This document shows, piece after piece, positions 2,629 through 27,919 of a stretch of DNA of 32,000 nucleotides. The DNA is from Candidatus Sericytochromatia bacterium. Lineage in GTDB: Bacteria > Cyanobacteriota > Sericytochromatia > S15B-MN24 > UBA4093. Position 1 is the first letter of the stretch. Each line of letters starts with the position of its first letter. The stretch is from the NCBI GenBank assembly GCA_036676455.1, contig JAKFCW010000047.1, forward strand, positions 69,203 to 101,202, written 5' to 3'. The notes under the pieces are model-generated. The model was not told the origin of the DNA and did no database searches. It saw only the letters and a list, made by a program, of their open reading frames with translations. The translations under genes and the position numbers were made by a program.

Positions 2629-2629
2629 C

Positions 2630-8422: not shown

Positions 8423-8499
8423 TGAGTACCCCCTTCCCCGGCTCGACCTGCGGTTCGACTTTGGCCGGGATTTTGCGATGTCGATGCTACGTAGTTATC

Positions 8500-10846: not shown

Positions 10847-10855
10847 TTCAACCTC

Positions 10856-12013: not shown

Positions 12014-12016
12014 CGA

Positions 12017-12766: not shown

Positions 12767-12768
12767 GG

Positions 12769-14613
12769 TTAGTTTCCTCCGGCTTGCGGAATCACCAGCA
12801 CGCGGGTGGTCTGGCGAATCCGGCTAAGCAAATCACGGCGCATGGCCTCCCGGGCCTCCGGGTTGGCATCCAGCAGAGACGGGCCCTTGAGGGCCTCCTC
12901 GACGACCATGCGGCCGCGCTCGTTGAGCGCACCAACGAGCGCGTTGAGCACGTCGGCCGGCGCATCGCGCAGCACCTCGGCGAGTTGCTCCTTGGGGAAA
13001 TCGCGGACCGCATCGCGCAGCACGTCCTTGGGGAGCTTCGGCAAGTCGTCGAATGCCACGTAGCTTTGCTTGACCTGCTTGAGCACCTGGGGGTTCTGGG
13101 TCGACAGCTCCTGCATGATGCGCCGCTCCATCTCCCGGTCGGAGTGGTCCAACAGGCCCACCAGCACGCCGATGCCGTTGGTGACGCCCGTCGAGAAGCG
13201 CGGCGCCTCCGACGCCTTGCTTGCAAGGTGAAGCGCGATGTCGTTGAAGGTCTCGAGGGGAATCTCGGAAAGCGCGCCCATGGCTGCGGTGACGGTTCCC
13301 AGCTCCCCGGGACTCAGCAGGTGCATCAGGCCGATCGCCCGCTGGGGAGGCAGCTGGGAGAAGGCCAGCGCCTGGACGCGTGGGGACTCGTCCTGGAGGA
13401 TGTAAATGATTTGCGAGTCGTCGAGCGTCTGAAGAAAGGCGAAAGGCTCGTTACGGCGCGTGCTCGTCCGAGAACCGGCCGTGTGGCGATCGCGCACGAT
13501 GGCGCGAATGGCCTCGCTGAGGGCCTGTTGCAACTCCTCGGCGGGAACGTCGGCACGCTCGAACTGCTTGAGCTCGATCGCCCGCCAGATTTCCTCCGAG
13601 ACGCCTGCGAAGAGGCGACGGCTCACGCCCGCCCCGAGGGTACGGGTCAGCAGCGAGGCCCGCTCCATGCCAAGTTCTTGACCGAGCAGCTGGTGCATGT
13701 AGCGCTCGGCAAGCTCGGGCTCGCTCAGGATCAGCATCGTCAACTCGTGGCGCAGCGGCTCGAGGTTGGGCCCCTGAGGCTCGGCCGGCGTGCTCTTGAG
13801 AGCCGAAGCCGCGTGTGCGGCCTGCGGTGCGAGGGAAGGCGCATCCGGACGACGGCGCGAACGCGTGAGCAGCCACCCCAAGCCCAGTCCGGCGCCGGCA
13901 GCCAGGACGGCCCACGCCCACGGCGGAAGGAGCGGAGAATCAGCCGTGCCGGCGGGAGTCGACGGGAAGTCGCGGCGCGTGATCTCGACGATCAGGTCCC
14001 GGGCGTAGGCATGATCCACCTTCTGGGCGACCATGTTGCGAATGAAGTCCTCATCCTGGCTCGTCAGGGAGGTGGGCAGCACGACAGAAACTTTCAAACG
14101 ATCGATCGACTGGGTTGGAGCCGGATCGTTCGGAGGAGCCACGGGCGCCGGATTCGGCAGATAGGGCATCGCCATGGAGGAAGGCGGCTCGAGCGTCTCA
14201 TCCTCACGCTGTCCCCCGAAGAGGCCCGGAAGGATCGGCGGCTCGTCGGCGCCACGTGTCGACAGAGCCGAGGGCCGCTGCGTCGGAAGCTGGGGCAGCA
14301 TCTGAGGCGCTTGCTGAGGGAGCGGCTGTTGCACGTAAGCGGGCCGCGAGCCGCGCTCTCCGCCCTCCTTGAGGATCGCCTTCACCTGCACGATGAAGCG
14401 GTCGGCGCCGAGGTAGGCGCTCAGGCCACGATCCAGGCTCTCCTCGAGGTAGCGCTCGTAGCTCAGCACTCCCAGCTCAGACTCCGATCGGGGAACTTCC
14501 GGCGGATTGAGCTGCGCGCTGGCGGCCATGGGAACGAGGGTCCCCGCCAGCAGCGCTCCAATAATGACGGCTTTTCGATTCTTCAACGGTACGCAACCTC
14601 GCAATTGGTTCAA
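12769..14613 (-). CDS. membrane protein: FliF-like periplasmic segments fused to a FliG-like cytoplasmic region (N, middle and C-terminal parts)
   Basis: 614-aa ORF. The start is uncertain: TTG at 14613 or TTG at 14586. There are two TM segments. FliF-like patterns are YERYLEESLDRGLSAYLGADRFIVQVKA and IDRLKVSVVLPT...ARDLIVEITRRDF, the second lying directly before TM2. FliG-like stretches are FLQTLDDSQIIYILQDESPRVQALAFSQLPPQRAIGLM and VAFDDLPKLPKDVLRDAVRDFPKEQLAEVLRDAPADVLNALVGALNERGRMVVEEAL. Confidence 0.8.
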   Translation of the reverse strand: MNQLRGCVPLKNRKAVIIGALLAGTLVPMAASAQLNPPEVPRSESELGVLSYERYLEESLDRGLSAYLGADRFIVQVKAILKEGGERGSRPAYVQQPLPQQAPQMLPQLPTQRPSALSTRGADEPPILPGLFGGQREDETLEPPSSMAMPYLPNPAPVAPPNDPAPTQSIDRLKVSVVLPTSLTSQDEDFIRNMVAQKVDHAYARDLIVEITRRDFPSTPAGTADSPLLPPWAWAVLAAGAGLGLGWLLTRSRRRPDAPSLAPQAAHAASALKSTPAEPQGPNLEPLRHELTMLILSEPELAERYMHQLLGQELGMERASLLTRTLGAGVSRRLFAGVSEEIWRAIELKQFERADVPAEELQQALSEAIRAIVRDRHTAGSRTSTRRNEPFAFLQTLDDSQIIYILQDESPRVQALAFSQLPPQRAIGLMHLLSPGELGTVTAAMGALSEIPLETFNDIALHLASKASEAPRFSTGVTNGIGVLVGLLDHSDREMERRIMQELSTQNPQVLKQVKQSYVAFDDLPKLPKDVLRDAVRDFPKEQLAEVLRDAPADVLNALVGALNERGRMVVEEALKGPSLLDANPEAREAMRRDLLSRIRQTTRVLVIPQAGGN

Positions 14614-14677
14614 CTCTTTCCCCAGGATAGCGCTCGGCGCGCGATTCAGCGGTGACCCTCGTCATAGCCGGGTGCGG

Positions 14678-14687
14678 TATGATAACA
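14678..14687. promoter_or_regulatory. candidate overlapping divergent -10 elements
   Basis: The plus strand reads TATGAT (14678-14683), upstream of GGAGG (14699-14703) and the ATG at 14712. The minus strand reads TGTTATCAT (14687-14679), an extended -10 type element upstream of the 614-aa gene. No convincing -35 was found on either strand. Confidence 0.2.
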
Positions 14688-14711
14688 CCAGATAGTTCGG
14701 AGGCCATTCTC

Positions 14712-15227
14712 ATGCTTGTCACTCGCCCCCTCTGGGGACTTATCTGCGGTACGCTCTTGCTGAGCGGATTCAACTCTCCGGCCTGGGCCCAGGCGGCTCG
14801 GAACGCTGAGCGATCCCCCATCGAGTTCCGTCTTCACCACCCCGAGGCCACGGCATCGACGGACGTGGATATCTGGGCGCCGGCCGATCCCCGCGTGCTT
14901 CACGACACCCAGCAGGATCTCGCGGCCATCCAGCAGTCGGTCTCGCCGTCCCGAGACTCGCGCCCATCCTTCACCGACGCGCTCCTCACGGGGATGGCCA
15001 CGCTCCCGGTCATCGGCCAGTTCGCCAACCACGACTGGATGAAGGGCCTCGTCACCTTGGGCACCGCCGCCGGCCTCACGACCGCCATCGTGATCGGCAA
15101 CGACCGGAACGACCCGCAGCTCGTGCGGCTGGGAACCCTGGGCCTCTACCCCCTGGCGGTTTTCGGAACCGTGGACGCCCTCGTCACCCGCCAGAAACGG
15201 GAAGCCAAGCCTTCGGTTCACCCATAA
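14712..15227 (+). CDS. secreted or membrane protein of unknown function
   Basis: I chose the internal ATG at 14712, which has GGAGG 8 nt upstream. The signal peptide is MLVTRPLWGLICGTLLLSGFNSPAWA-QA. Two hydrophobic segments lie near the C-terminus (LLTGMATLPVIGQF, GLVTLGTAAGLTTAIVIG). Confidence 0.6.
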   Translation: MLVTRPLWGLICGTLLLSGFNSPAWAQAARNAERSPIEFRLHHPEATASTDVDIWAPADPRVLHDTQQDLAAIQQSVSPSRDSRPSFTDALLTGMATLPVIGQFANHDWMKGLVTLGTAAGLTTAIVIGNDRNDPQLVRLGTLGLYPLAVFGTVDALVTRQKREAKPSVHP

Positions 15228-15242
15228 ACCACCGGTCACGAC

Positions 15243-16001
15243 TTAGATCTTCACCTGGGTCAGCACTGCCTCCGCACGCAACCCTGCGACCGTGAACTGG
15301 GCCTTGACGAGCCCCACCCCGGGAGCGAACCAGGCCTCGGTCGGTTCGCCATGGTCCTCGACGTAAAGCACCTTCCAGCACCCGGGAAACGTCGCCACCT
15401 CCGTCTCGACGCGTTCCAATCCGATCAGACGCGCCTTTCCGTTGATTGACGGCCAGTACATGCCCGGCGTCGCACGTTGCGGCATCATGGGCTTGCCGTC
15501 GACCTGGATCCAATCCTCGTCAACGCGGGCCTTCCATGCTTGATTCCCCGAAAGCCACCCCACCGTGAAGCGCGATTCCACCTCCAGCTCGAAACCCTGG
15601 TTCTTCGGCTCAAACCTCTGCACTGTCAGCTCCATGCGGCCTTGGGGAAACCAGCCATCGATAGCACTTAGGCGGTAATTCAAGACCGTGTTCGCACTGA
15701 AAACCATGGGCCCCTGGACGAACGTCCGTTGCACGGCCTCCGACGTCCCCCCTGCAGCCCCCTCTCCGGGAGTCGAGGGTTCTGCAACGGGAGCGTCTTT
15801 GGCTCGGTCGCTGGTGGCCCCGTCTTCTTTCCGCTTTTCCGGCTTGTCTGCCAGGGGATCAACACTCCATTCCGCCGGAGGCTGAAGCATCGTTCCCGTC
15901 TCCTGCCATTCGGCAGGCAAGCCTACACCCGAACTTGGGCATCCTGCGAGGGGCCAAGCGATCAGAAAGGCGATGGCAAACCGCGCGACCGTCCAATTCA
16001 T
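15243..16001 (-). CDS. lipoprotein of unknown function, last gene of the lipoprotein array
   Basis: 252-aa ORF with an ATGA overlap with the upstream gene. The lipobox is AWPLAGC. A low-complexity linker leads to a beta-rich domain ending in EAWFAPGVGLVKAQFTVAGLRAEAVLTQVKI. Confidence 0.75.
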   Translation of the reverse strand: MNWTVARFAIAFLIAWPLAGCPSSGVGLPAEWQETGTMLQPPAEWSVDPLADKPEKRKEDGATSDRAKDAPVAEPSTPGEGAAGGTSEAVQRTFVQGPMVFSANTVLNYRLSAIDGWFPQGRMELTVQRFEPKNQGFELEVESRFTVGWLSGNQAWKARVDEDWIQVDGKPMMPQRATPGMYWPSINGKARLIGLERVETEVATFPGCWKVLYVEDHGEPTEAWFAPGVGLVKAQFTVAGLRAEAVLTQVKI

Positions 16002-17164
16002 GGGGTGGATTGGCCATCCGTTGGCACGATGAAAGGAATCAGGGCTGTGCGCCCAAACGCGTTCGCGCCACCATACGACCCGGATCCCTCCCAGTACTTG
16101 AGCACGTAGTAACGAGTCCCCGGATGGACCGTTTCGTCGAGCGTGAACGAGACCCGGGTCGTCATGGTCTCGGGGTCATGGGCCGAAGTCTCGTAACGCT
16201 GCAAGGGGACCAGACTCGAATTCGACTCCCTGACCGCGGAATCATAGATCTCGATGGCGTACTTCGGATCCGTCAGCCCGGTCTTGGCCGGAAACTCGAA
16301 AGTCACCTCCCGGGACTCCAGCACCGAATTCATCGCGGGAGTGGCTGCCGAGAGATCCCAACTCAAATCGAATTCGACCTCCGGGACCTCCGTTTGCGTC
16401 GCCGAAACCTGGACGGGCTCGGAGATGGCAAACTGGGGTCGGCGAGGCATGGCCGTGGCCACTGAGATCGTGCCCTCGAAGCCGGAATAGCCGGAGTAAG
16501 TGGGATACGAGCTGTGGTATCCCAGGTGGTAGGCCCCATCGCTCAGGTTGAAAAAGTTTGCGGCCCCCGCCGGGGTCACCTGGGTCGATCCGTAACTGTA
16601 AAAGTAGAACGGCGTGACACCCTCGCGCCGGAACACGCCCATCGAGAGCTGCTCACCAGTGGCTTCTCCGCCGATCACGCGACCGTAAAGCTGACTGCCC
16701 AGGACGTTTTGATCCACCAATGGAGTCAAAGGGCTGTATGGCATCACCGTGCTCTTGCCGGGGGTGTCGAGCAGGATGTGAAGCGAGGCGTAGCTGCGCC
16801 GTCCAGGCATGAGCATGGCCATGGTGTAGCCGTACCCAACGACCTCTCCGGATGCGAGCATGGCGCTGACCTTGATCGAGGCTTCCCCGGAAGGCAACCC
16901 TGAGAGGTCGATATAGTTGCTCTCAGCTTTCGGCAGGGTGCGCGTCTCCGTCCGACCATCCTCGAGCGTCAACTCGACTTTCAACTCGGCAAGATCCTCG
17001 GCGATGACCTGAGCCTTCCTCCCGAAGTCGACGCTCATGCGCAACGATGCGCCCTGGTGCTGGGACGAAACCAATGAAGGCATGGCTGCCGGGGCGCAGC
17101 CAGTTAGCCAAAGCGATGCCGCCACTGCGAGGGCGAAGGCCCGGGACGTGTGGTTTATCGTCAT
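15998..17164 (-). CDS. lipoprotein of unknown function
   Basis: This is the 399-aa ORF in the track. I prefer the start at 17164 (MTINHTSRAFALAVAASLWLTGC, lipobox LTGC). Alternative starts are at 17173 and 17197. The N-terminal beta module is ASLRMSVDFGRKAQVIAEDLAELKVELTLEDG. Confidence 0.75.
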   Translation of the reverse strand: MTINHTSRAFALAVAASLWLTGCAPAAMPSLVSSQHQGASLRMSVDFGRKAQVIAEDLAELKVELTLEDGRTETRTLPKAESNYIDLSGLPSGEASIKVSAMLASGEVVGYGYTMAMLMPGRRSYASLHILLDTPGKSTVMPYSPLTPLVDQNVLGSQLYGRVIGGEATGEQLSMGVFRREGVTPFYFYSYGSTQVTPAGAANFFNLSDGAYHLGYHSSYPTYSGYSGFEGTISVATAMPRRPQFAISEPVQVSATQTEVPEVEFDLSWDLSAATPAMNSVLESREVTFEFPAKTGLTDPKYAIEIYDSAVRESNSSLVPLQRYETSAHDPETMTTRVSFTLDETVHPGTRYYVLKYWEGSGSYGGANAFGRTALIPFIVPTDGQSTP

Positions 17165-17165
17165 G

Positions 17166-18074
17166 TCAATCATTCGCGACCACCCCTCCCCCTTCAAATA
17201 CGACCCCTTCCCGCATCAACGTCGAAACCACTCCGTTCTCGTCGCTGATGACTTCCTTGAGAAGGCCTTCCGATGCCCCGTACCAGCGATCCACGGTCAC
17301 CTCTGTCCATGTCTGCGCGTCGCCGGGATACTGGTTTGTCCAGCGATAATGGCGGACCTTGGTGCTCGGCGCTAGCAACTCGGAGTCCACGTAAACCGCG
17401 TGAGTCGGGATGGCGGTCCAGGAATCCGTCGGGTAAGATTCCGACACTCCTGCTCCAATTCGACGATAAACCGTCGAATACTGCACCTGAAAGGTCACCG
17501 CGACCCGCTGGGAGTCACGCGTAAGCCAGAAGAGCAATTGCTGCTGGTTCGGATAATACGCGGCAAAATCCGAATCGAATCCGTCTGCATGGCTCAGACG
17601 GCGGTAATCAAGCAGGCGTTGCCCAAAGCTGACACCAAGATCGAGTGCCGGCTTACCCCCGTGGAGTAGGCTGAAACTGACAGGTGTCTCCTCGCCCGGC
17701 AAGAGGACGACGGCCATTTGCTGCCTATCGTGCATCGCGTGGGTCTCGGCGTCGCGCGCCGTCACGGTTACCGTGACGGGACCGGGCACGAGATTCGCGA
17801 TTACAGTCGGTTCGTCGAGTTGAAGGACCCGGGGTTCAACCACGACATTGCGATACTCCCAGCCCGAGTACGCAACTTCGAGGAGCACCTCGATGCCTGC
17901 GGTGCTCTGGAGCTGGCGAGGCACAGAGACAATCGCTCTCATGCGACTCGTCTCGGCACTGGCGATCTCGGTCGCAGGTTGCAGAGTCGTCCCCGTCGTG
18001 GTCACGCCCTCGCAGCCCAGAAGGAACATGGTGGGCAGGGCCAAGAGCAGACCCCATCGATTCATCTTGCGCAT
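17166..18074 (-). CDS. lipoprotein of unknown function
   Basis: This is the 316-aa ORF in the track. I prefer the start at 18074 (MRKMNRWGLLLALPTMFLLGC, lipobox LLGC), 4 nt after the upstream stop. The beta module is RMRAIVSVPRQLQSTAGIEVLLEVAYSG. Confidence 0.75.
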   Translation of the reverse strand: MRKMNRWGLLLALPTMFLLGCEGVTTTGTTLQPATEIASAETSRMRAIVSVPRQLQSTAGIEVLLEVAYSGWEYRNVVVEPRVLQLDEPTVIANLVPGPVTVTVTARDAETHAMHDRQQMAVVLLPGEETPVSFSLLHGGKPALDLGVSFGQRLLDYRRLSHADGFDSDFAAYYPNQQQLLFWLTRDSQRVAVTFQVQYSTVYRRIGAGVSESYPTDSWTAIPTHAVYVDSELLAPSTKVRHYRWTNQYPGDAQTWTEVTVDRWYGASEGLLKEVISDENGVVSTLMREGVVFEGGGVVAND

Positions 18075-18078
18075 TACC

Positions 18079-19566
18079 CTACCCTTCCTCGGACGGTGCG
18101 GCCGGCGTGAAGTCAATCAACTCGTAGGTGGTCACCTGGCGCTGGCGAGGGAGGGGGTCCCGTTTGCCTTCGTGGGAATAGTGGTATCCACCGACGCGAG
18201 TCTCCACGGAGCGCACGACGCCCACGCCCTCGACCAGCCAAACCTCACGGGTGACTCCGGATTCGGGGCTGGTGAAATAGTGCTTCGCCAGTCGTTGACC
18301 GAGGGCCGGAACGTTGAGCGTCACCTCAGGCAAGGTCTGGATGCCGTTAGTGGAACTCAAGCGAAAGATCGGACTCAGCTCGGAAGCGGACCCGTTCGCC
18401 AAGTCGAACGCCCGCAAGGTCGAGTAGCTGTAGGACTCATATTGCCCGCGCCCGTCGTCATCGAGCATCTCCACCCGCATCGTGCGGCTCCAGGACGACG
18501 TGCCCCCTCCCTGAGACTGCGGATAAGTGTAAGTTGTGCTCACAAGGTAGTTCCAGCGCGTACCGGCGGCCAGGGGGAGTGCCTCGAAAGGCGGCTTCCA
18601 AAGGTCCTGCCCCACCCAGCGAGTGGGGTTCTGGGGTGGGGCATCCGGAACCTCGATGAGTTCCACGTCTAGCGAGGCGGTGGCCTGCGTGGGCATCGAG
18701 AAGTCGATACTACGTGACGTGACGCCGTCCACCATGACCATGAACTTCGGCTGGAGCTTGTCGGGCTTGGTGAAGTAATCGGCAAAACCGGAGAGCAGGT
18801 CATGGGGGACCGTCAGGGTGAGTTGCGTGTCGGAATCGACGGTGACGGCGGTTTCCGGAAGCGACCTGCGCATCATTCCAAACCCTCCTGATGGCACTGG
18901 CATCGGGAAGATGAGGTTTGAATAAGGCAGGTACTGGTAATTCAGCCCCACGTAAGCCAGGGTTTTCCAGTTCTTGGACTTGCCAAAGCCAGAGCCGGCG
19001 ACGATGATCCGGTCTCCAACCCGCCAGTCGCTCTTGGACAGCGAGGTGATCACCGGCGCGTCAACGGCCACGAGCTCCATGCCGACCGTCGCGAAGAGGC
19101 CAGGCACGACGTCGATGCGCTTCTCGTCCGAAGCCACGACCTGATTCTGAGCGTCACGAACTTCTGCCTGAATGAGCAGATCCGCCTGGACCGGAAGGTC
19201 CCATCTCAAGGAACCGTAAGTGTTGAACCCGGCGGGGTAAGGGCCGTAGTAATAGGGATCCGCCTGGCGGTAGATCTCCACGGGGGCGATCGCCTTTCCC
19301 GACGAATCAATCGCCTGCGATCCATCCGCGCGCGTCAGCGTAACGACCGCCTTGATCGCCCGGTTGGGAATCGCCTGGAGGGAGGAACCGGAATCCGGCC
19401 AGCGAATGCCCAGCCCCAGGCCGCCGACTCCAGCCTGTGTGTGCGCCTCCGTTTGCCCCGTGCCGATCGCATTCGAGGTCCACTGAGTGCCAACAGGAAC
19501 CGTGCAACCCAACAGGGCTGAAACGAGGCCGAAGGCGATCCACGTCTTGAAATCTCGCTGTCTCAT
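18079..19566 (-). CDS. lipoprotein with an IPT/TIG-like Ig domain
   Basis: This is the 504-aa ORF in the track. I prefer the start at 19566 (MRQRDFKTWIAFGLVSALLGC). The N-terminal module is GLGIRWPDSGSSLQAIPNRAIKAVVTLTRADG. The IPT/TIG-like stretch is PVITSLSKSDWRVGDRIIVAGSGFGKS. The C-terminal module is EVWLVEGVGVVRSVETRVGG. Confidence 0.8.
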   Translation of the reverse strand: MRQRDFKTWIAFGLVSALLGCTVPVGTQWTSNAIGTGQTEAHTQAGVGGLGLGIRWPDSGSSLQAIPNRAIKAVVTLTRADGSQAIDSSGKAIAPVEIYRQADPYYYGPYPAGFNTYGSLRWDLPVQADLLIQAEVRDAQNQVVASDEKRIDVVPGLFATVGMELVAVDAPVITSLSKSDWRVGDRIIVAGSGFGKSKNWKTLAYVGLNYQYLPYSNLIFPMPVPSGGFGMMRRSLPETAVTVDSDTQLTLTVPHDLLSGFADYFTKPDKLQPKFMVMVDGVTSRSIDFSMPTQATASLDVELIEVPDAPPQNPTRWVGQDLWKPPFEALPLAAGTRWNYLVSTTYTYPQSQGGGTSSWSRTMRVEMLDDDGRGQYESYSYSTLRAFDLANGSASELSPIFRLSSTNGIQTLPEVTLNVPALGQRLAKHYFTSPESGVTREVWLVEGVGVVRSVETRVGGYHYSHEGKRDPLPRQRQVTTYELIDFTPAAPSEEG

Positions 19567-19576
19567 GCTTCGTCCC

Positions 19577-21301
19577 CTAGTAGATGTAGACATTCAAGCC
19601 ACCACTGGTCCTGTTCGTGAAGAGGCCAGGAGTCAGGTGGATGCGGGTTCCAGGCGTACCGCCCGCGCCGTCCATCAGGACCAGGTAGGGCCACGTCTCG
19701 TTCTTGGAAACATTCAGGCCGCCCCGTTCATCGAAGGGAGCGTCGTAATCGATCCGTCCGATCACGGTCCTGCTGGGGATGTCAACGAAGCGTGCCTCGA
19801 CGACGAGTCGCAGCGGCTCGGAATCCAGCGTCACCGTTCCTTCGAGGCGAAGATTCTCCATTTCGTCATCGAGCACGAAACTCAGGACGCCTCCCGTGAT
19901 CATCGAGCGCTCGCCCACCTTCTCGATCCGCACCGAGGCGTCGGCTTTGGCGAGGAATACCGAGCGAACTCCCGCCTTGTCGCGAGGCGCGAGGCGAAGC
20001 GTGACGCTTCCGCTCGTGAAATCGGGATTCAAAGCAGCGGACAACGCAGCATGTAACGAAGGGAATTCCAGGCTTGCCTCACCCTTGGTGGGAAAGCGGG
20101 TCAATGAATTTACTGCGACGCCATAATAAGCGTATGGGAAGTAAACGTACCCGTTCGGATTGGCGTCCCGAATCGCGGCGAGCAGCGGGGACGTCGCTGT
20201 TTCCCTAACCTCATTGAGTTCTAGGGCCGCCTTGAAGCGACTCGCCACCTGCCCCTGCGGAACGATTTCACCGCTGAGACGCAGCGCGCTGATGGTTTCA
20301 GGAACCGGGCGTTCCCCTCCAAAAAGGTCGAAGGCCCGAGCGCCCGTGGTTTCCGATTGCGGATTGACGCCCGCAAACGAGCCCCGCAGTTGTGGCTCTG
20401 CCACCCAGGAGGATGTCACATCCGCCGACAGGGTCGCCCTGGTCTGATCACCACTCGGGGAACTCGGATTCAAGGCGAGATCGAGGCGTCGCTGCAAGGG
20501 GCCAGACGTGAAGGCCTGGGAAATCTGATAGCCAGGCCAGAATGCTTTGAGGATCGCGCGATCGCGCAGCTCCAGGCCAAGTATGGATTGGCCCGGCAGG
20601 TGCCAGGTCTCAACTGTACCAGGGGCGCCCTCGATGAGCGTGCCGTTCGCGCCAAGGCTCATGGCATGGAAGAGGTGTTGGCCGTTCGAATTAAACGAAT
20701 CCACCACCTGGCGAACGGCAGCTTCCATGGTCAGCACCTCGGGGAAAGTCCGAGGGTTCACCCAGTTATCGAAACGATCGGCGTAATGATAGAGGTCTTT
20801 CAGGAGGGTGATCTGACGAGAGATCCGGATCGTCAGTGAGGCCTCGTTGTCCAGGGTGATGACGACGCCCGTCGACGTGTTGTCACGAATCGGCACGTCC
20901 GCTTGCCCGCCTTGGGCTAGGATCTTGCCGCCCCCCCGGACAACGACCTCCACGTTCACCGTTTCGTGAGCGGGCGAGATCTGGAAAGAAAAGGTGGAGA
21001 CAGGCGATTCCCCGGCAGGGCGATCGATCGTCTTGCTGACCAGGAGCTGATTGGACTTCGAACGGACCGAGACTTCGATGGTTTCGGCTTCGAGCGGAAT
21101 GGCCTGGGTCGCGAGGGGACGCGCGGGCCACTGGATGCGCATGACCAGGTTGCCTTGGTGGGCAGGTTGCTCCATGGCGTCCAGCCCCGCGTCCCCGGAG
21201 GAAACCTTGGGCGTGTCGGCGACGTTGGGCACTCCCACCGTACAACCCACGAGTCCGATGGCGACGACGAGGCCCCAGCGGGCGATGACTTTCGACTTCA
21301 C
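19577..21301 (-). CDS. lipoprotein of unknown function
   Basis: 574-aa ORF with a GTG start and GAGG upstream. The lipobox is AIGLVGC. The N-terminal module is NLVMRIQWPARPLATQAIPLEAETIEVSVRSKS, which resembles that of the downstream paralogue. Confidence 0.8.
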   Translation of the reverse strand: MKSKVIARWGLVVAIGLVGCTVGVPNVADTPKVSSGDAGLDAMEQPAHQGNLVMRIQWPARPLATQAIPLEAETIEVSVRSKSNQLLVSKTIDRPAGESPVSTFSFQISPAHETVNVEVVVRGGGKILAQGGQADVPIRDNTSTGVVITLDNEASLTIRISRQITLLKDLYHYADRFDNWVNPRTFPEVLTMEAAVRQVVDSFNSNGQHLFHAMSLGANGTLIEGAPGTVETWHLPGQSILGLELRDRAILKAFWPGYQISQAFTSGPLQRRLDLALNPSSPSGDQTRATLSADVTSSWVAEPQLRGSFAGVNPQSETTGARAFDLFGGERPVPETISALRLSGEIVPQGQVASRFKAALELNEVRETATSPLLAAIRDANPNGYVYFPYAYYGVAVNSLTRFPTKGEASLEFPSLHAALSAALNPDFTSGSVTLRLAPRDKAGVRSVFLAKADASVRIEKVGERSMITGGVLSFVLDDEMENLRLEGTVTLDSEPLRLVVEARFVDIPSRTVIGRIDYDAPFDERGGLNVSKNETWPYLVLMDGAGGTPGTRIHLTPGLFTNRTSGGLNVYIY

Positions 21302-21315
21302 GGCTGTTACCTCGG

Positions 21316-22863
21316 CTACTTGACGTCGATCGCGATCGCCGCGTCCCGGCGAACCGGAATCGGGATCTCGAGCGTGATGGGAGGCTGGGTCTTGGTCGAG
21401 AGCTCCACGCTGGCGGTTCCTTCCGCGCTACCGGGTTTGACGCTCACTCGTCCCCAGGCGTCAACCAGGACCATGTGGGGAGTCCCGCTCCGCCATTCCA
21501 ATAGGCTGGCATCCTCGGGAGAGTGGGTGATCGCCCGATCGTTCCACGTCAGCTCCCAGGCGAGTTGCAAGTCGGTCGGATGGCCCAAGTTATTGTCACC
21601 GAGCGAGGAACCATCGGCGGGAACGTAGAGGGCCGGCGTCTGCGAGGGGACCTTCAACTTACCCGAGAGGATGCGGCGCGGAGTCTCGACGATGCGCATG
21701 GTCAGATCGGCGTACTTGTCGGCATTCGCGAGCGCGGTGGCTCGGATCGTGACGTCTCCGGGGGCCGCTCCGGAGAGCAGGCTGATACGGCCACCCTCGA
21801 GGGAGACTTTGCCGGCCTGGGCCCCGGAGACGATCGACCAATCGGCTATCGGCAGCTCGGTGCCGTCCGTGAGCACCGTGAGTGCCCGGACGAGGTGCGT
21901 CTGGGGGTAGGCGGGATCGGTCGCGCCGTTATCGAAGGGAAGGTAGACCTTTTCGGGTGCCGGAAGCAGTTCGAAACGCTGGATGGTGGTCGGGGGCTTG
22001 GAAACCACAGGGGCCACCACGGGCGGAGCCGGTGGAGTGGCAGGCGGATTGGCGGAGGGAACACCGCCCTCCTCCAGGCTATTCGTGGGATCGACGCTGC
22101 CTTGCGCTTCGGAGAGGGCATCGATGGGATCGGGCAAGGCAGCCAGAGCGGGATCCAGTTGCTTGACGAGCGACAAGGCCTGCATGGCCTTGCCCACCGC
22201 CTCGGGATCGGTGGTGTCGGTGTCCATGACCACCGCGGTGAAGGCCTCGGGCTTGGCCTTGAGCACCTCGAGCGTGCTCTTCACGGCCGCCTGGACCTTT
22301 GCCATGTCGAGGGTCGGCAGCGAGGCCTGGTCACGGCCCTTGGTGATGGACTCGGCGACCAGGGTGCTGGCGAAATCAAGAGGTTGAGTCGGAGGATTGG
22401 CCTTGTCCTTCTCGGTGACCTTGGCGAACGTACGGAACGTGCGGGGCACTCCCGCGGGGTCCTTGAAGGCGGCGACGATCGTGTAGACCTTGTTGATGTC
22501 CAGGCGCAGGATCACGCGTCCAGTGGCATCGGTGGTGCCGATGACCGTGAGGCCGCCAGTGGTGGGAATCGCCCGAACCTCGGCTCCAGGAACCGGGGTG
22601 TCGAAGGAAATGGCCGGATCGCTGAGCACGTGGAAGCCCGCAATCCGGAAAGCCGAGACCGACTTCAAGGCGGGAGCGAGAACCTGAATCGGAGTATCGA
22701 GCTTGAAGGCATCGGTCGGAACCGGCGCCGCCGGCCCCGCAGGCACGAGTTGGTGCCCGGGACACGCGCTCAAAAGCGCGCTCACCGTTCCGAGGCTGGC
22801 GACAAGCAGTCCGGCTCTCACGAGGCGGGCGAGCGGTCGCGAGGAGAAAGATGAGTTGAACAT
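21316..22863 (-). CDS. lipoprotein with an N-terminal beta-sandwich and two Big_2-like Ig domains, first gene of the array
   Basis: This is the 530-aa ORF in the track. I prefer the start at 22863 (MFNSSFSSRPLARLVRAGLLVASLGTVSALLSAC). A carboxypeptidase-regulatory-like stretch is VRAIPTTGGLTVIGTTDATGRVILRLD. Big_2-like stretches are VSLEGGRISLLSGAAPGDVTIRATALAN and VLVDAWGRVSVKPGSAEGTASVEL. Confidence 0.8.
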   Translation of the reverse strand: MFNSSFSSRPLARLVRAGLLVASLGTVSALLSACPGHQLVPAGPAAPVPTDAFKLDTPIQVLAPALKSVSAFRIAGFHVLSDPAISFDTPVPGAEVRAIPTTGGLTVIGTTDATGRVILRLDINKVYTIVAAFKDPAGVPRTFRTFAKVTEKDKANPPTQPLDFASTLVAESITKGRDQASLPTLDMAKVQAAVKSTLEVLKAKPEAFTAVVMDTDTTDPEAVGKAMQALSLVKQLDPALAALPDPIDALSEAQGSVDPTNSLEEGGVPSANPPATPPAPPVVAPVVSKPPTTIQRFELLPAPEKVYLPFDNGATDPAYPQTHLVRALTVLTDGTELPIADWSIVSGAQAGKVSLEGGRISLLSGAAPGDVTIRATALANADKYADLTMRIVETPRRILSGKLKVPSQTPALYVPADGSSLGDNNLGHPTDLQLAWELTWNDRAITHSPEDASLLEWRSGTPHMVLVDAWGRVSVKPGSAEGTASVELSTKTQPPITLEIPIPVRRDAAIAIDVK

Positions 22864-22916
22864 GGTGTCGCGCGGTCTCCTGCTACATCGAAATGCGATC
22901 AATTGCACGTCTTGCG

Positions 22917-22945
22917 AGCATAACGCATTGGAAATGACCGATCAA
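22917..22945 (-). promoter_or_regulatory. candidate sigma70-type promoter for the lipoprotein array
   Basis: On the minus strand: TTGATC (22945-22940), a 17-nt spacer, then TATGCT (22922-22917). It lies in the relatively A/T-rich 233-nt gap upstream of the start at 22863. Confidence 0.3.
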
Positions 22946-23096
22946 TGTGCAAGCGTCTGCAAATCTAGCGAAAATCTGCTTACCTGGAAGATTTCCGCAA
23001 CAATTCGATGCATTCAGGCGACTTCTCGCCATTCCCGCGAAGGCAGCGACGCCGAAACATCGGAGCCGCTGGCCGGGGACGTATATGCGAAAGACG

Positions 23097-24389
23097 TTAG
23101 AACTTGAAGGTGTTGGAGAGCGTGTAAGAGGCGCCCCGGGCGTTGCCGCCCACGCCATTGAGGGCCGCCATGGCAAAGTCCAGGCGGAAGAGGGGCATGT
23201 CCAGCCCCAGGCCGGTGGCGAACGTCAGGCCACGATCTCCCCCCAGGGCGATACCCCCGCGGACCGGGAGCCAGTCGAGCAGGCGCAGCTCGGAGCCGAC
23301 CCGCAGTTCCGGCGTGCGCGAAACGCCGAAGCCATCGCCGTAGCCGAGTTGCAGCTCGCCGCTCAGCGTGAACGGATCCCAGGGCTTGAAGGCCGCTGCG
23401 AGGCGCAGGTAGGGCGGTAGGACGATCTCCGAGGGGCCTTCCTGAGTCCGGGATTCCTTGAGGGCATCGCGGGTGACGGCCCCGAAGTCGGTCACGGAGC
23501 CCGAGGCGTCCACGACCGAGAAAGGCTCCACCTTGAGGGTGTAGGTGGTGACGTCGCGCCGGCTCCAGCTCATGACCCCGACGTTGCCAAGGATGGCGCC
23601 CCAGCGCAGGCGATCGCCCACCCTCCCGGCAGCTCCGAAGTCGGCCGCGATGCCGTTCCCACCCGTGGCCCATTCGGTCGATAGCCGCGCGTCGGCCGAG
23701 TACCGGCCGGACTCATCAACGGCCAGCAGCGTCCCGCGGGCCTCGCGGACACGGCCGTAGGCCAGTCCCCGCAGGTAACGCAGGTTCATGCCCAGGCTCG
23801 ATGTCTCACCCATCGGAAAGGCGAACGAGGAGCCGAGAGAGGCGACTGCCGTCGCCGTTGCCCCGCCCAGCGCATCGATCCCGACGTTGGGGACGGAGGC
23901 GTTGCCGTTGAGCGCAAGGGCGATCAGGTCCCGAGGCAGATCGAGCCCCTTGGTGTCCGCCACCGCATCCAGGAAGACGCCCGTTCGCGCGCTCGGCATG
24001 GACAGGGCCATCGAGGTGCCTCCGTCGAACAGGAAGCGCCATCCGGTCGGCGGCAAGGCCTCGAGCACACCGGCGACGTTGGTGGGCTCGATCGCCTGGG
24101 TCGAGATCAAGCCGGCAAGCTCGCCGAAGGACAAGACGTTGTTCCCGAGGGCCAGGTTCAGGTTGGGCAGCAGCGTGAGCGAGAGGCGATCGCGACGCGA
24201 CTCGAGCCCCAGCAGGGCCGGGTTCACGATCATGGCGTCGGCGTCCATGGCGATCGCCGCGTTGGCCCCGGCCATACCCGCACTCCGGGCGTTGCCATAG
24301 GCGTACGCAGGGAGCGCGGGAGCAAGGCTCGTCAGCATGGCGGAGATAGCGGCCAGGGTGCCGCGCGACCGGAAACGGGAAAGGCTCAC
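23097..24389 (-). CDS. outer-membrane beta-barrel protein, FadL/PorV-like
   Basis: 430-aa ORF. The GTG start forms a GTGA overlap with the upstream gene. The signal peptide ends in ALPAYA-YG. The N-terminal motif is NARSAGMAGANAAIAMDADAMIVNPALLG. Gly/aromatic-rich alternating strands run throughout. The C-terminus is ...YTLSNTFKF. Confidence 0.8.
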   Translation of the reverse strand: MSLSRFRSRGTLAAISAMLTSLAPALPAYAYGNARSAGMAGANAAIAMDADAMIVNPALLGLESRRDRLSLTLLPNLNLALGNNVLSFGELAGLISTQAIEPTNVAGVLEALPPTGWRFLFDGGTSMALSMPSARTGVFLDAVADTKGLDLPRDLIALALNGNASVPNVGIDALGGATATAVASLGSSFAFPMGETSSLGMNLRYLRGLAYGRVREARGTLLAVDESGRYSADARLSTEWATGGNGIAADFGAAGRVGDRLRWGAILGNVGVMSWSRRDVTTYTLKVEPFSVVDASGSVTDFGAVTRDALKESRTQEGPSEIVLPPYLRLAAAFKPWDPFTLSGELQLGYGDGFGVSRTPELRVGSELRLLDWLPVRGGIALGGDRGLTFATGLGLDMPLFRLDFAMAALNGVGGNARGASYTLSNTFKF

Positions 24390-26500
24390 TTCGACTCCTG
24401 CCTGGAGGAGACGTTGGCCTTGAACTCGACGGCCAGATTCACCCGGAAGCCGGATCCCCGGAACAAGGTCACGGGAACCGACGAGCCCGGCGAGCGCACC
24501 CGTAGGCCGAGCTTGGAGGCCTTTCGGAAGCGATCCAATGCCTCTCCCTCGAGCGTCAGGTGATTGGTCACACGGTAGCCTGCCGCCTGGTTGCCCAGTG
24601 AAAGCGTCTGAACGAAGGCCTCGGAATCCGTGAACGGATCACTCGAGGTGGAAAAGAGCAGATCGAGATCGAGCGGAATGCTCCAGCCGTTGTCGATGGT
24701 CAGCTTGAGCACGGCACGCTCCACCCGGTTCAGCATGTCTCGATTCTCCGACGTGAAGCTCAACGCCGTCGGCGGACGAACGTCGATGGCCGGCTTCGGC
24801 GCGCTTCCCCCGAAGGGTTCGAGCGTGAACGAGAGCGGAATCTCGACGCCGAGGCGGCCTTCCAGGACGTCGGACGCCGAGAGACGAACGGGCTGTCCCT
24901 TGGAGTCGATCACGACCTTGCCGCCGACGCTCAGGGAGGTGGGCTTGGCGTTGAGAAGGTCGAGCAAGTTGGAGTTCTGGGCGTTGACCTGCAGCTCATT
25001 GACCTGATTGCCCGCGATCGGCAGGCGCAAGGGCTGGCCGCTCTTGTCCCGCAAGGGCACATCCCCCGTTCCGGGAATGCTGGCCCTGACGTCCAGGTCG
25101 AGGGTGCCAGCGAGGGCGCTCGCGTTCTGAAGCTCCAGGCGCAGGACGACGTCCTGGAGGTTGATGCCCTGATTGGAAATCAGGTCAGGAAGCTGGATGG
25201 GCATGGAGGAGGCCGGGAGGGCGATCTCGCGGGTCACAGGAACTTCGATCGCCCGGAATCGGAGCGGGGCCCGGAGGAGGACCCGTCCCGACATGGACGG
25301 CGAGCCGTCCATGGCCAAGAGGGCGCCGGAGGGCCCGGTATCCTTGGTGGTGGCGCGCGCCGTCACCGCGATCTGGCCGTTCTCGGGGCGGATGGTGACG
25401 CCGGTGAGCGGAACCTCGATGGTTCGGGACTCGCCTGCCTTCAGCTCGTAGACGGCGGTCATCGGGGCGGTTTGACCGGGCCGGAAAAAGTGCGAGAAGC
25501 CCAGGTCCAGGGTAGCCGCAACCGGGAAGCCGTTTCGCAGCGTGAGCTCCAGGGTGCCCTCCTCGACCTCGAGGCTGCGGACGGTTTCGGTCGCGTACGC
25601 CGGGTCGTCGAGCCCGAAGTCGAGCGTCTGAGAGGGGATCTGGATGGATTTGGTGGCGATCTCGACGCGAAGGTGGCTGATGGTCTTGGTCACGAGCACG
25701 ACGTTCGAGAGCGTCACATGGGAGACCGGGGCCTGCGCCAGTTGCCCGCCAGGAATGAAGACGTCGATCTTCAGCGAGAGATCGGGCGTGAGGGTCGCCC
25801 CGGCCTGCAGCGGAACGGTCAATCTGCGGGACTGCCCCGGGTCGAGGGGAACCGCGGCCTGGGTACGTCCCACTTCCCGGGTGGCTCCGCCCTGGGTGGC
25901 GTAAAGCTTCACCGTCGGTGAGAAGCGGACCCCCAGCTGATTCTCCACCGTGAACTCCAGATGCCCCGACGGCGTCCCGACCCGAGCCTCGGTGAAGTTG
26001 GACTCTCCGGCGGGAACCGCGAGCTTCTGATCGACCGTGTAGGTCAAGTTGAAGGGAACGGGCACCCCGGGGGAAAGTCCCCCTCCCACGATCGTGTCCG
26101 CGCGCAAGGGGAGATCGGGGAACTGGATGTCCGGCAGTGAGGCGTCGACGCCGGGAAGTGACTGCTGGGGCAAATCGATCGCCAAGGGGTCGTTCAGCGT
26201 GAGGTTCTCGGCGAACCGGATGGGCTCGAGTTCCTGTGAAGCCGGCATGAGGTGAAGCCGCTCGTCGTTGCCGGGCTGGACCGCGAGGTCTCCGAAGAGG
26301 GATCGCGCCACCCCGGGGTCATCCAGGGAGAGGGAGAGCGAGCCCAGGGGCAAGGCGATATCCACGGGCCATGCGTACTGGATCCCCTCGGAATTGGAAG
26401 CCGTCGACAGCTTCTGCAAGGGGCTCAGAAGTTCAAGCCCACAGCCTGCGAGGAGCATGGTGATCAGTAAGACGCCAAAGCGCGGTATCATGGCCTTCAT
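24386..26500 (-). CDS. large beta-rich lipoprotein of unknown function, coupled to the barrel gene
   Basis: This is the 726-aa ORF in the track. I prefer the start at 26500 (MKAMIPRFGVLLITMLLAGC, lipobox LLAGC). The composition is beta-sandwich-like throughout. No known catalytic motif was recognised. Confidence 0.75.
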   Translation of the reverse strand: MKAMIPRFGVLLITMLLAGCGLELLSPLQKLSTASNSEGIQYAWPVDIALPLGSLSLSLDDPGVARSLFGDLAVQPGNDERLHLMPASQELEPIRFAENLTLNDPLAIDLPQQSLPGVDASLPDIQFPDLPLRADTIVGGGLSPGVPVPFNLTYTVDQKLAVPAGESNFTEARVGTPSGHLEFTVENQLGVRFSPTVKLYATQGGATREVGRTQAAVPLDPGQSRRLTVPLQAGATLTPDLSLKIDVFIPGGQLAQAPVSHVTLSNVVLVTKTISHLRVEIATKSIQIPSQTLDFGLDDPAYATETVRSLEVEEGTLELTLRNGFPVAATLDLGFSHFFRPGQTAPMTAVYELKAGESRTIEVPLTGVTIRPENGQIAVTARATTKDTGPSGALLAMDGSPSMSGRVLLRAPLRFRAIEVPVTREIALPASSMPIQLPDLISNQGINLQDVVLRLELQNASALAGTLDLDVRASIPGTGDVPLRDKSGQPLRLPIAGNQVNELQVNAQNSNLLDLLNAKPTSLSVGGKVVIDSKGQPVRLSASDVLEGRLGVEIPLSFTLEPFGGSAPKPAIDVRPPTALSFTSENRDMLNRVERAVLKLTIDNGWSIPLDLDLLFSTSSDPFTDSEAFVQTLSLGNQAAGYRVTNHLTLEGEALDRFRKASKLGLRVRSPGSSVPVTLFRGSGFRVNLAVEFKANVSSRQESK

Positions 26501-26611
26501 GCGCGGGAAATCTCCGACGTGAACCTGGGGACGGCCTCGGCCGCGTGGGAGCATCATACCAAACAAGCATGTTTTCTAATCTGTGATGAAAGGCAGGAAG
26601 CCGTGGAAGAG

Positions 26612-27043
26612 ATGCGGACTTCGACGACGCAACGCCCCAGCCTGGAGGCGATTTACATGCGCCTGGCGGGGATGCTGTCACTGCGCAGCACCTGCTCGCG
26701 CCTGCAGGTGGGAGCCGTGGTGGCCTCTCCGGACATGCGCGAGATCTTCGCCGTGGGCTACAACGGGGGGCCGGTGGGCGGCTTCAACGATTGCCTGAGC
26801 GAGGAAGCGGGCCGCTGCGGGCATGCCCATGCCGAGGACAACGCCTGCAACTTCGCCCCGGCGCGGGTGCCCAAGATCATGCTGGTGACGCATTTCCCCT
26901 GCCCGGCGTGCTGCGTGCGGATCGTCAACAAGCTCGGCTTCGAGCGCGTGTACTACCAGCAGGTCTACCGGGACATGGCGGGCCTGGAGATCCTCGAGCG
27001 GGCGGGCATCACCGTCGCGCAGCTCGACCCCAGCCTCGACTGA
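26612..27043 (+). CDS. dCMP/cytidine deaminase-family zinc enzyme (ComEB/dCMP-deaminase type)
   Basis: The start at 26612 was chosen so that SLEAIYMRLAGMLSLRSTCSRLQVGAVV is included. The zinc-binding motifs are CGHAHAEDNA (H-A-E) and FPCPACC (PCxxC). Confidence 0.8.
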   Translation: MRTSTTQRPSLEAIYMRLAGMLSLRSTCSRLQVGAVVASPDMREIFAVGYNGGPVGGFNDCLSEEAGRCGHAHAEDNACNFAPARVPKIMLVTHFPCPACCVRIVNKLGFERVYYQQVYRDMAGLEILERAGITVAQLDPSLD

Positions 27044-27072
27044 TCAAGCACTCCCGCATGCCGCCTCCGTCA

Positions 27073-27119
27073 CTCCCGCACAAGCGGGAGTCCAGCTGGA
27101 TTCCCGCCTGCGCGGGAAT
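27073..27119. repeat. REP-like double hairpin element
   Basis: Hairpin 1 is ctcccgc-acaa-gcgggag (27073-27090). Hairpin 2 is attcccgc-ctgc-gcgggaat (27100-27119). It lies just after the deaminase stop. One frame reads ...KRESSWIPACAGMT, which resembles the spurious peptide produced by a widespread intergenic palindromic repeat family. Confidence 0.5.
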
Positions 27120-27238
27120 GACGCTTCCAGGGGCTTCGCGCCCGCCAACACCCGCTTGACGCTTGCCAGGGGAGGTACGATCCCGACTAGGGCTCCCTAG
27201 AGCAGGGAGCGAGCAAGAATCGGGAGGAGGGTCAGCGC

Positions 27239-27919
27239 GTGAAACGAGCAGCCTTGAGCCCCGCCATCAGAATTGCGGCCGGGATCGCGGTGGGCACGGC
27301 CTGCCTGGGTCTGGCGCCGCCGGCCGTCGCTCACGCCGCGAGCGGCGCCTGTCCCGACTGCGAGATGCGCATGATGCGCCCCGGCGGCGGCGGGGGCATG
27401 GACGACGACGACATGCGCATGATGCAGGCCCATCGCGCCAGCGGCGGGCACAAGCACTTCAACCTGGTGGTTCAGCCCTACTGGAACATGAACCAGGACG
27501 CCATCTACACGCTCCTCGGCATGGAGATGCTCAAGCAGGATTCGCTCGGCTGGAAGGGCGGATTTGGCATGTACGGCGGCATGAACTTCGGCGTCACCAG
27601 CCAGACCAACACCTTCCATTACGGTGGCGCCATCATGGGCAAGGACTTCTCGGCCGGCCCGCTCACCCTGGGCATCGGCGCCCTGCTGGGCTTCGGCAAG
27701 ACCGCCAACGTCCTGCCCGCGGTCCTGCCGGCCGGCATCACCAACTACTACATGTTCGGGGTCGGCGCGCCGCGCATCGGCCTCGCATGGACGCTCTACG
27801 ATCGCATGGAAATCGGCCTCGACGCCTCGTACCTGTTCACGACCAACCCCACTATCGGGAACAGCCCCGCCGTCAGCCTGCGGCTCTCCACCATCTCCTG
27901 GGGCAAACACGGGAACTAG
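27239..27919 (+). CDS. secreted Met/Gly-rich protein of unknown function, possibly a small beta-barrel
   Basis: 226-aa ORF with a GTG start and GGGAGGAGG 8 nt upstream. The signal peptide ends in PPAVAHA-AS. The N-terminus carries CPDCEMRMMRPGGGGGMDDDDMRMMQAH. The remainder is Gly/aromatic-rich. I chose this ORF over two overlapping Arg-rich ORFs. Confidence 0.7.
   Translation: MKRAALSPAIRIAAGIAVGTACLGLAPPAVAHAASGACPDCEMRMMRPGGGGGMDDDDMRMMQAHRASGGHKHFNLVVQPYWNMNQDAIYTLLGMEMLKQDSLGWKGGFGMYGGMNFGVTSQTNTFHYGGAIMGKDFSAGPLTLGIGALLGFGKTANVLPAVLPAGITNYYMFGVGAPRIGLAWTLYDRMEIGLDASYLFTTNPTIGNSPAVSLRLSTISWGKHGN

Follow-up and report, generated by a model that had tools for sequence, protein, structure and literature searches.

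A lipoprotein–DUF5723 barrel gene pair associated with an orphan rotor–stator module in a Sericytochromatia genome

The window, which is the whole stretch of 32,000 nucleotides of Candidatus Sericytochromatia DNA that was analysed, encodes on its minus strand a large lipoprotein and, directly adjoining it, an outer-membrane β-barrel. The features of this pair and of its immediate surroundings are as follows.

24386–26500, minus strand: large lipoprotein, 704 aa (open reading frame and translation)
23097–24389, minus strand: outer-membrane β-barrel, 430 aa, Pfam DUF5723 (open reading frame, Pfam score and structure model)
24386–24389, minus strand: GTGA overlap between the GTG start of the barrel gene and the TGA stop of the lipoprotein gene (read from the sequence)
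26501–26611, no strand: divergent intergenic region of 111 nt, between the lipoprotein ATG at 26500 (minus) and a deaminase ATG at 26612 (plus)
23044–23071, minus strand: GC-rich hairpin about 25 nt past the barrel stop codon (folding)

The lipoprotein reading frame opens with the ATG at 26500 and closes with the TGA at 24386–24388. The barrel reading frame starts with the GTG at 24389, with a GGAG Shine–Dalgarno sequence 6–9 nt upstream. Third-position GC is 0.84 and 0.86 in the lipoprotein and barrel genes, which is typical of real genes in the window. An earlier reading of this DNA, made from the sequence only, had described a lipoprotein of about 704 aa with an LLAGC lipobox, a 430-aa barrel and a GTGA overlap, all of which are indeed present on the minus strand. 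It had also proposed translational coupling of the two genes, and this holds: the junction is tight in all nine paired loci (seven with a 4-nt overlap and two with a 3-nt spacer), which represent two families and one distant lineage, the distant pair lying on a contig of 52% GC. The lipoprotein and barrel genes form a bicistronic, translationally coupled unit, and a stoichiometric complex of their products is plausible.

The divergent intergenic region contains an AT-rich patch, in which TATGAT is preceded by TTAGAA-like bases (read by eye), and we consider this patch to be a candidate promoter of the pair. A strict consensus promoter scan returned nothing in 26501–26611 and nothing in the gap between the pair and the array of six lipoprotein genes that follows it on the same strand. 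The sequence-only reading had given this gap as 233 nt with a promoter inside it; the length is correct if the first array gene starts at 22863, and the promoter is plausible, albeit with a negative consensus scan. The stable hairpin at 23044–23071 lies in a segment (22990–23100) that folds with −42.7 kcal/mol and a z-score of −2.2; it may act as a terminator or processing site, although it lacks a U-run. The array itself is an insertion confined to this genome, and the proposed tie between it and the pair did not survive comparison with the congeneric genome G109, which has no array at the corresponding locus. Since the array lipoproteins are missing there and share neither similarity nor an N-terminal tag with the 704-aa lipoprotein, we rejected the array as cargo or partner of the pair.

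The lipobox of the 704-aa lipoprotein reads L-L-A-G-C, with Cys20 as the lipidated residue. It continues into a tether (C-G-L-E-L-L-S-P-L ... W-P-V-D), followed by an all-β multi-domain body, and both lipobox and tether are kept in 12 of 12 aligned orthologues. The mature protein has a pI of 5.1. Its structure model is all β with a pLDDT of 75, but the tether, about 45 residues long, is modelled at a pLDDT below 50 although it is conserved, which is the pattern expected of a segment that folds only on its partner. Sequence searches of the lipoprotein against Pfam, NCBIfam and the PDB gave no match, and a Foldseek search with its model gave no whole-chain fold match (TM of 0.17 or less relative to the query among the best 50 matches).

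The barrel protein has a signal peptide ending in A-Y-A and a C-terminal phenylalanine. It matches Pfam DUF5723 (PF18990) over residues 140–400 with 45.5 bits, above the gathering cut-off of 26.8, and the precomputed DUF5723 domain is present on all of its close homologues. Two further families are matched below threshold, in each case through the N-terminal motif and the first 50 or so positions of the profile: Toluene_X (PF03349; 14.9 bits, gathering cut-off 29.7, residues 33–65 alone) and NCBIfam PorV_fam (NF033709; 30.9 bits, curated cut-off 90, residues 33–80 alone). The motif contains N-P-A at residues 56–58, with Pro57 invariant in 20 sequences. No match to PDB sequences was found with the single barrel sequence; a barrel profile gave only a marginal match to PorV (E = 0.45), in which the motif is aligned with that of PDB entry 6h3i. 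The motif had been taken for the hatch signature of FadL and PorV barrels, and these alignments bear this out. The accompanying assignment to the FadL/PorV family stands as regards fold and motif, whereas formal membership fails at both curated cut-offs.

The barrel model (pLDDT 82, pTM 0.76) comprises about 16 long strands as listed by DSSP. Foldseek ranked FadL, TbuX, TodX and CymD first (E from 2e-10 to 1e-8, TM 0.48–0.57), followed by PorV and BamG. The fold search that the sequence-only reading had suggested for both proteins was thus informative for the barrel, whose predicted FadL/PorV fold it upheld, and returned no whole-chain match for the lipoprotein. On its model, the barrel is assigned to the FadL superfamily (Pfam DUF5723), with a plugged barrel of the FadL/PorV type. 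DUF5723 groups uncharacterized outer-membrane barrels, and the literature searched contains mere listings of the family. One member, from Brachyspira, has been modelled as a 16-stranded barrel (bioRxiv 10.1101/2025.01.03.631275). As the family has no assigned function, membership alone explains nothing.

A second set of genes in the window has to be considered together with the pair. The two sets lie in one block, in the order lipoprotein, barrel, six-lipoprotein array, small plus-strand gene, FliF/FliG fusion, TPR protein, x385, MotA, MotB, x256 and x343 lipoprotein.

7305–26582, minus strand: block of 19.3 kb that is present or absent as a whole (comparison with G121)
9291–14613, minus strand: rotor–stator operon (Pfam matches)
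12769–14613, minus strand: FliF/FliG fusion (Pfam)
12017–12766, minus strand: TPR protein, member of the rotor–stator operon
10856–12013, minus strand: x385, member of the rotor–stator operon
10025–10846, minus strand: MotA (Pfam)
9291–10025, minus strand: MotB (Pfam)

In the closest relative, G121 (79–91% DNA identity), positions 7305–26582 are missing as a unit that includes everything from the pair to MotAB. There, some 210 bp connect the two flanks (window 1065–7304 and 26583–27034) within a single contig, and both Tad sets are kept. A mobile-element origin of the block was rejected, boundary repeats not having been found. It should be noted that the deletion of contiguous DNA is by itself no proof of shared function. 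A published account of MotAB evolution contains nothing on modules of this sort.

The distribution of these genes was followed in 201 genomes of the phylum (Cyanobacteriota). The relatives of the pair are Sericytochromatia MAGs, whose taxon names come from an x385 alignment scan; a related-locus search with the single barrel protein returned none. Distant homologues comprise 282 representatives at E ≤ 1e-30. One and the same set of 17 of the 201 genomes carries the barrel, the FliF/FliG fusion and x385. All 17 also have a detectable lipoprotein: a genome search recovered it in 14 of 27 genomes belonging to the order, and tblastn alone in the three others, where the match adjoins the barrel gene. 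Neither G121 nor families f3 and f4 have the pair, and it is likewise missing from the remainder of the phylum sample. Lipoprotein and barrel genes adjoin each other in genus g1 and family f2; genera g2–g4 keep both, on different contigs, and their lipoprotein gene adjoins NHL and Tad-like genes, so that adjacency is not obligatory. In the family of the window (f1), the barrel gene adjoins the FliF/FliG gene in all nine barrel-bearing genomes, in two arrangements. In f2 the pair and the FliF/FliG–TPR–x385 genes lie on different contigs, and MotAB is not adjacent to them. The pair and the motor genes are found together, lost together and, in f1, placed side by side, and the co-occurrence with the mot operon, for which a check had been suggested, is seen with the FliF/FliG–Mot module. 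This co-distribution nevertheless reflects a small number of independent events, about one gain plus one loss.

The genome also carries, on contig C56, a second pair of a lipoprotein and a DUF5723 barrel, the lipoprotein being unrelated to the 704-aa one. The C56 paralogue is found throughout the order, G121 included, and further families of this class have it too; it is the class-wide 'core' pair, and the pair in the window is an accessory paralogue. A distant lipoprotein–barrel pair lies on contig L043, and a profile comparison of its lipoprotein with the 704-aa protein found no homology (probability 7%).

We may wonder at this stage whether the pair simply takes up small molecules. The best fold matches of the barrel (TM about 0.5) are true transporters (FadL, TbuX, TodX and CymD), with which it has the N-terminal hatch and its N-P-A motif in common, and the f2 pair stands alone among unrelated neighbours. 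This would suit an independent outer-membrane uptake unit, namely a FadL-like lateral-diffusion channel with a capture or binding lipoprotein, to which the motor genes are unrelated. FadL has 14 strands, and the barrel model about 16 long ones. The Toluene_X score, however, is about half of the cut-off. A Toluene_X search of the whole genome (86% complete) gave no match at all, while controls were matched in three genomes. Genes for fatty-acid or aromatic catabolism were seen at none of the loci of relatives examined, where most neighbours were compared only with the proteins of the window. Known FadL channels work without a dedicated lipoprotein of 700 residues, such as the one kept beside the barrel in g1 and f2. 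Given the missed cut-off, the lack of catabolic genes among the neighbours compared and the retained lipoprotein, the barrel is not a plain FadL orthologue, and the objection that it might be one, set in a catabolic context with no conserved lipoprotein, is not borne out. The shared set of 17 genomes and the common deletion further argue against motor genes that are mere bystanders, and we regard an uptake unit as unlikely.

A second alternative is a Slam-like or PorV-like exporter or shuttle that carries the lipoprotein, and perhaps the six array lipoproteins, to the surface without forming a stable complex. In Slam systems a barrel gene lies beside the gene of its lipoprotein cargo, and PorV and PorQ dock their partners PorU and PorZ, as well as cargo, at the cell surface. 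The barrel resembles PorV and PorQ (NF033709; PDB entries 6h3i and 8gl6) in its FadL fold and in the N-terminal motif ..ARS.G.G...W-N-P-A.., and the lipoprotein array does follow on the same strand. Its PorV_fam score is nonetheless only one third of the cut-off, and the array is neither conserved at this locus, as G109 shows, nor similar to the lipoprotein in its N-termini. The role in type IX secretion that had been suggested for a PorV-type barrel found no support in the genomic context: neither SprA_N nor Por_Secre_tail was matched in this genome (86% complete), which is a weak test as the control genomes matched neither. Type IX systems are known only from Bacteroidota and allied phyla. 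An exporter seems improbable.

An outer-membrane role in the flanking Tad-like pilus systems, for which the Tad-like ATPase and platform genes on both sides of the block and the Tad-like neighbours of the lipoprotein gene in g2–g4 might speak, was rejected as very improbable on the grounds that G121 has both Tad sets without the pair and that a secretin gene lies beside the TadA set (about 1.6 kb past the end of the window); a plugged monomeric barrel of 14–16 strands would also not be expected to let a pilus pass.

A close parallel among known systems is BamG–BamH of the Bacteroidota BAM complex (PDB entries 9hjm, 9hiv and 9n2d). There, BamH inserts its conserved N-terminus as a wedge into BamG, a FadL-like barrel, and the counterparts BamG2 and BamH2 are encoded in an operon (PMC12578637), like the pair in the window. 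In both cases a FadL-fold barrel is accompanied by a large lipoprotein with a conserved N-terminus, and BamG chains are among the significant Foldseek matches of the barrel. There are also clear differences. The 704-aa lipoprotein has no PDB sequence match, and no entry for a BAM complex is among its best 50 fold matches. The barrel belongs to DUF5723 and not to Toluene_X, and it lacks the N-terminal extension of BamG, the mature protein starting 2–3 residues before the conserved motif. Moreover, the pair is dispensable, as G121, f3 and f4 lack it (wide retention is seen for the C56 paralogue), and it travels with rotor–stator genes, not with BamA.

Taking these points together, we consider it reasonably probable that the pair forms a barrel-docked lipoprotein complex like BamG–BamH that has been recruited to the orphan rotor–stator module. 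The lipoprotein would be the dedicated partner of the plugged DUF5723 barrel. Its conserved and intrinsically unstructured tether would dock on or into the barrel, maybe near the hatch or the lateral opening, in the way the BamH N-terminus docks in BamG. The large all-β body would thereby stay attached to the outer membrane, probably at the cell surface. We infer both the physical complex and the surface exposure of the lipoprotein from these comparisons. The accessory pair would belong with the FliF/FliG fusion, the MotAB stator, the TPR protein and x385, most likely as their outer-membrane end, and may be coupled to the rotor, mechanically or functionally. Gain, loss and gene position link the pair to the rotor and stator genes, so that it probably forms the outer-membrane portion of an orphan flagellar-type machine and does not serve as a fatty-acid channel.

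Whether the pair is the outer-membrane and surface end of an undescribed, envelope-spanning rotary machine is a more doubtful matter, and we put this forward only tentatively. Such a machine would combine a FliF/FliG rotor fusion, a MotAB stator and periplasmic scaffold proteins, and would have neither rod nor filament nor flagellar export apparatus. Rotation driven by ions in the inner membrane would be passed to a lipoprotein exposed on the surface, where it might serve, for instance, surface movement, the control of adhesion or export. In Bacteroidota, the GldLM motor drives surface adhesins; the machine would parallel this arrangement, but with flagellar-type parts.

FadL-fold barrels have long been regarded solely as channels for hydrophobic compounds. 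With PorV and, since 2025, BamG, they are also known as docking platforms for lipoproteins, and the present locus would carry this theme beyond Bacteroidota and allied phyla into a cyanobacterial lineage. The host is an uncultured, non-photosynthetic relative of cyanobacteria, in which one lineage has both the class-wide pair and an accessory one. By its position, its distribution and its co-deletion with the rotor–stator set, the accessory pair is the strongest candidate for the outer-membrane portion of the module, and the lipoprotein and its barrel offer a concrete handle on the role of an as yet unexplained rotor–stator module.

The pair is encoded by two ORFs that overlap by the bases GTGA, which are common to the GTG start of the barrel gene and the TGA stop of the lipoprotein gene:

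24386-26500, minus strand: lipoprotein ORF (ATG at 26500, TGA at 24386-24388), 704 aa
23097-24389, minus strand: barrel ORF (GTG at 24389), 430 aa

A GGAG sequence lies 6-9 nt upstream of the barrel GTG, and the third-position GC of the two ORFs (0.84 and 0.86) is in the range typical for real genes in the window. Translation of the ORFs gives a lipoprotein leader ending in the lipobox L-L-A-G-C and, for the barrel, a signal peptide with an A-Y-A end and a C-terminal Phe. The coordinates, lipobox, overlap, N-terminal motif and C-terminus described in the sequence-only reading were all correct when the ORFs and translations were read. The 111-nt region upstream of the pair is common to a divergent deaminase gene and contains an AT-rich promoter-like patch; the pair is thus a transcription unit separate from the neighbouring Tad genes. 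The surrounding genes are ordered as follows:

minus strand: TadZ-like gene, TadA, TadB and TadC, followed by two plus-strand genes (one being the deaminase gene)
minus strand: the pair, a 233-nt gap with a hairpin, then six lipoprotein genes (the array)
plus strand: a small gene, followed on the minus strand by the rotor-stator genes (FliF/FliG fusion, TPR protein, x385, MotA, MotB)
two more genes, plus-strand NHL genes and a second Tad-like set

At three sites third-position GC distinguishes the real gene from an overlapping shadow frame:

14652-15227, plus strand: real gene (longer minus-strand ORF 14646-15239 is the shadow frame)
27239-27919, plus strand: real gene (minus-strand ORF 27197-27910 is the shadow frame)
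5006-6115, plus strand: real gene (longer minus-strand ORF 4925-6406 is the shadow frame)

Since the real genes at these sites are on the plus strand, an opposite-strand gene separates the pair from the FliF/G operon. A double-hairpin element after the deaminase gene (about 27049-27135) has more than 20 short matches, 79-100% identical, on many contigs of the closest relative, G121, and therefore belongs to a dispersed REP-like repeat family in the genus.

The barrel is a member of Pfam DUF5723 (45.5 bits for a cut-off of 26.8), a family for which a full HMMER search returned 3121 representative clusters at the E ≤ 0.001 threshold, of which 282 reach E ≤ 1e-30. Its AlphaFold model (pLDDT 82, pTM 0.76) has as top Foldseek matches in the PDB FadL, a Pseudomonas FadL homologue, TbuX, TodX and CymD (E 2e-10 to 1e-8, TM about 0.5), followed by PorV (8gl6_F, 6h3i_F) and then by Bacteroidota BAM-complex chains (9hjm_F, 9hiv_F, 9n2d_B). 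Residues N56-P57-A58 are the counterpart of the N-P-A hatch motif of FadL, with P57 invariant in 20/20 sequences. The earlier description of a FadL/PorV-like barrel therefore holds for the fold, but not for curated membership: the barrel falls below the cut-offs of Toluene_X (14.9 versus 29.7 bits) and NCBIfam PorV_fam (30.9 versus 90 bits), both matches being confined to the first 50 or so mature residues. With a 20-homologue profile, the N-terminal segment aligns to PorV of PDB entry 6h3i at a non-significant E-value. FadL has 14 strands, whereas DSSP suggests about 16 long strands for the barrel model; a Brachyspira DUF5723 protein has likewise been modelled with 16 strands (bioRxiv 10.1101/2025.01.03.631275). 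That the pair is a self-contained FadL-type uptake unit is improbable in our estimation, and we give the same low credence to the barrel being a Slam-like or PorV-like exporter of the lipoprotein.

The 704-aa lipoprotein has no sequence match in Pfam, NCBIfam or the PDB. Its model is all-beta and multi-domain (pLDDT 75, pTM 0.52), with only partial fold matches, of jelly-roll or carbohydrate-binding-module type, and no whole-chain match among the 50 best from Foldseek. In all 12 orthologues the lipobox is retained, the Cys is followed by a Gly-hydrophobic segment, and a P-S-W-P-V-like motif comes 25-35 residues further on. This tether segment, with a pLDDT below 50 in the model, is conserved yet without intrinsic fold and would thus be expected to dock on a partner.

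G109, which is congeneric with the window's genome, and six genomes of another family of the order (f2) have the lipoprotein gene immediately before the barrel gene. Including the window, six of the eight Sericytochromatia junctions are 4-nt overlaps and two are 3-nt spacers. The junction is just as tight in a distant pair from a metagenome contig with 52% GC (L043 992-4329): a DUF5723 barrel with 27% identity to that of the window is preceded by a 666-aa lipoprotein with no detectable homology to the window lipoprotein. An L-P-x-W-x-V stretch follows the lipidated Cys in both lipoproteins, about eight residues on in L043 and 25-35 in the Sericytochromatia orthologues. Three genera of the window's own family (g2-g4 of f1) retain both genes on different contigs; there, the lipoprotein gene sits between the deaminase gene and NHL plus Tad-like genes, which is exactly the window gene order minus the stretch from the barrel to x343, the lipoprotein gene at the far end of the block.

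The window's genome (G000, a MAG, 86% complete) encodes a second pair (L001):

contig C56 2605-3537: lipoprotein gene, 28 nt upstream of the barrel gene
contig C56 3565-5118: second DUF5723 barrel

The C56 lipoprotein is unrelated in sequence to that of the window. All f1 and f2 genomes, G121 among them, carry the C56 barrel paralogue, as do f3, most of f4 and other families of the class. This broad distribution separates a widely kept pair (C56) from an accessory one (window) in Sericytochromatia, and the C56 pair looks like the housekeeping version.

Of 201 sampled genomes from the phylum, exactly the same 17 (8/9 f1 genomes, G000 and 8/8 f2 genomes) carry the barrel, x385 and the long FliF/G fusion; none of the three was found in f3, f4 or elsewhere in the sample. 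The lipoprotein, searched in the order's 27 genomes, is found in all 17, in 14 by direct match and in three by tblastn beside the barrel. As these genomes are kin, the pattern reflects few independent events. The co-occurrence that the sequence-only reading proposed to check is seen with the motor genes but not with the array, which is missing at the same locus in G109 and whose proteins resemble the 704-aa lipoprotein neither in sequence nor by a common tag. The array lies outside this linkage. A single contig of G121 (79-91% DNA identity) has the counterparts of window 1065-7304 and 26583-27034 with about 210 bp between them (L040 18670-18880); G121 thus lacks 7305-26582 as one 19.3-kb block reaching from the start of the lipoprotein gene to x343. 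The join consists of unrelated bases between the NHL and deaminase genes, and a search for boundary repeats of the block found none. It is very improbable that the pair is a Tad component, as G121 retains both Tad sets without the barrel and, 1.6 kb past the window end, the TadZ/TadA genes have a secretin gene just upstream of them:

contig C47 102808-103287, minus strand: secretin gene (one of five secretin matches in G000)

In each of the nine f1 genomes that have it, the barrel gene adjoins the FliF/G gene, on the same strand and about 0.7 kb apart in g1 (seen in G109), divergently and roughly 150-450 nt apart in g2-g4. The f2 genomes have the pair, MotAB and the FliF/G-TPR-x385 genes at scattered positions: at L050, L053, L055 and L056 the genes for the FliF/G fusion, the TPR protein and x385 are together, with no MotA/MotB found within 10 kb. 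G025 (L032) instead has a MotB-like gene on the upstream side of the FliF/G fusion gene. At L017 (G055:C25 15026-19977), a divergent second MotB/MotA-like pair (42% and 30% identity) comes after the rotor-stator operon, and TadC-like and TadB-like genes come after that, another arrangement of motor-Tad clustering.

The best-documented precedent is BamG-BamH, in which BamG, a FadL homologue, is the attachment platform of the surface lipoprotein BamH; a paralogous pair, BamG2-BamH2, is encoded as an operon (PMC12578637). The window lipoprotein is not a homologue of BamH. Gene structure, family, fold, coupling, co-distribution, co-deletion and adjacency are observed here, whereas the complex and its topology are our inference. 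Coupled translation of the two genes would give matched protein amounts, the conserved tether would dock onto the barrel, and the beta-rich body would be retained at the outer membrane, probably on the extracellular side. We propose that the barrel may work like a FadL-fold docking barrel. Because the window copy travels with the FliF/G-MotAB genes, the accessory pair most likely makes up that machine's outer-membrane end, possibly coupled to its rotor. New here are the occurrence of this type of pair in the cyanobacterial lineage, the distinction there of a core from an accessory copy, and the tie between the pair and an orphan rotor-stator module.
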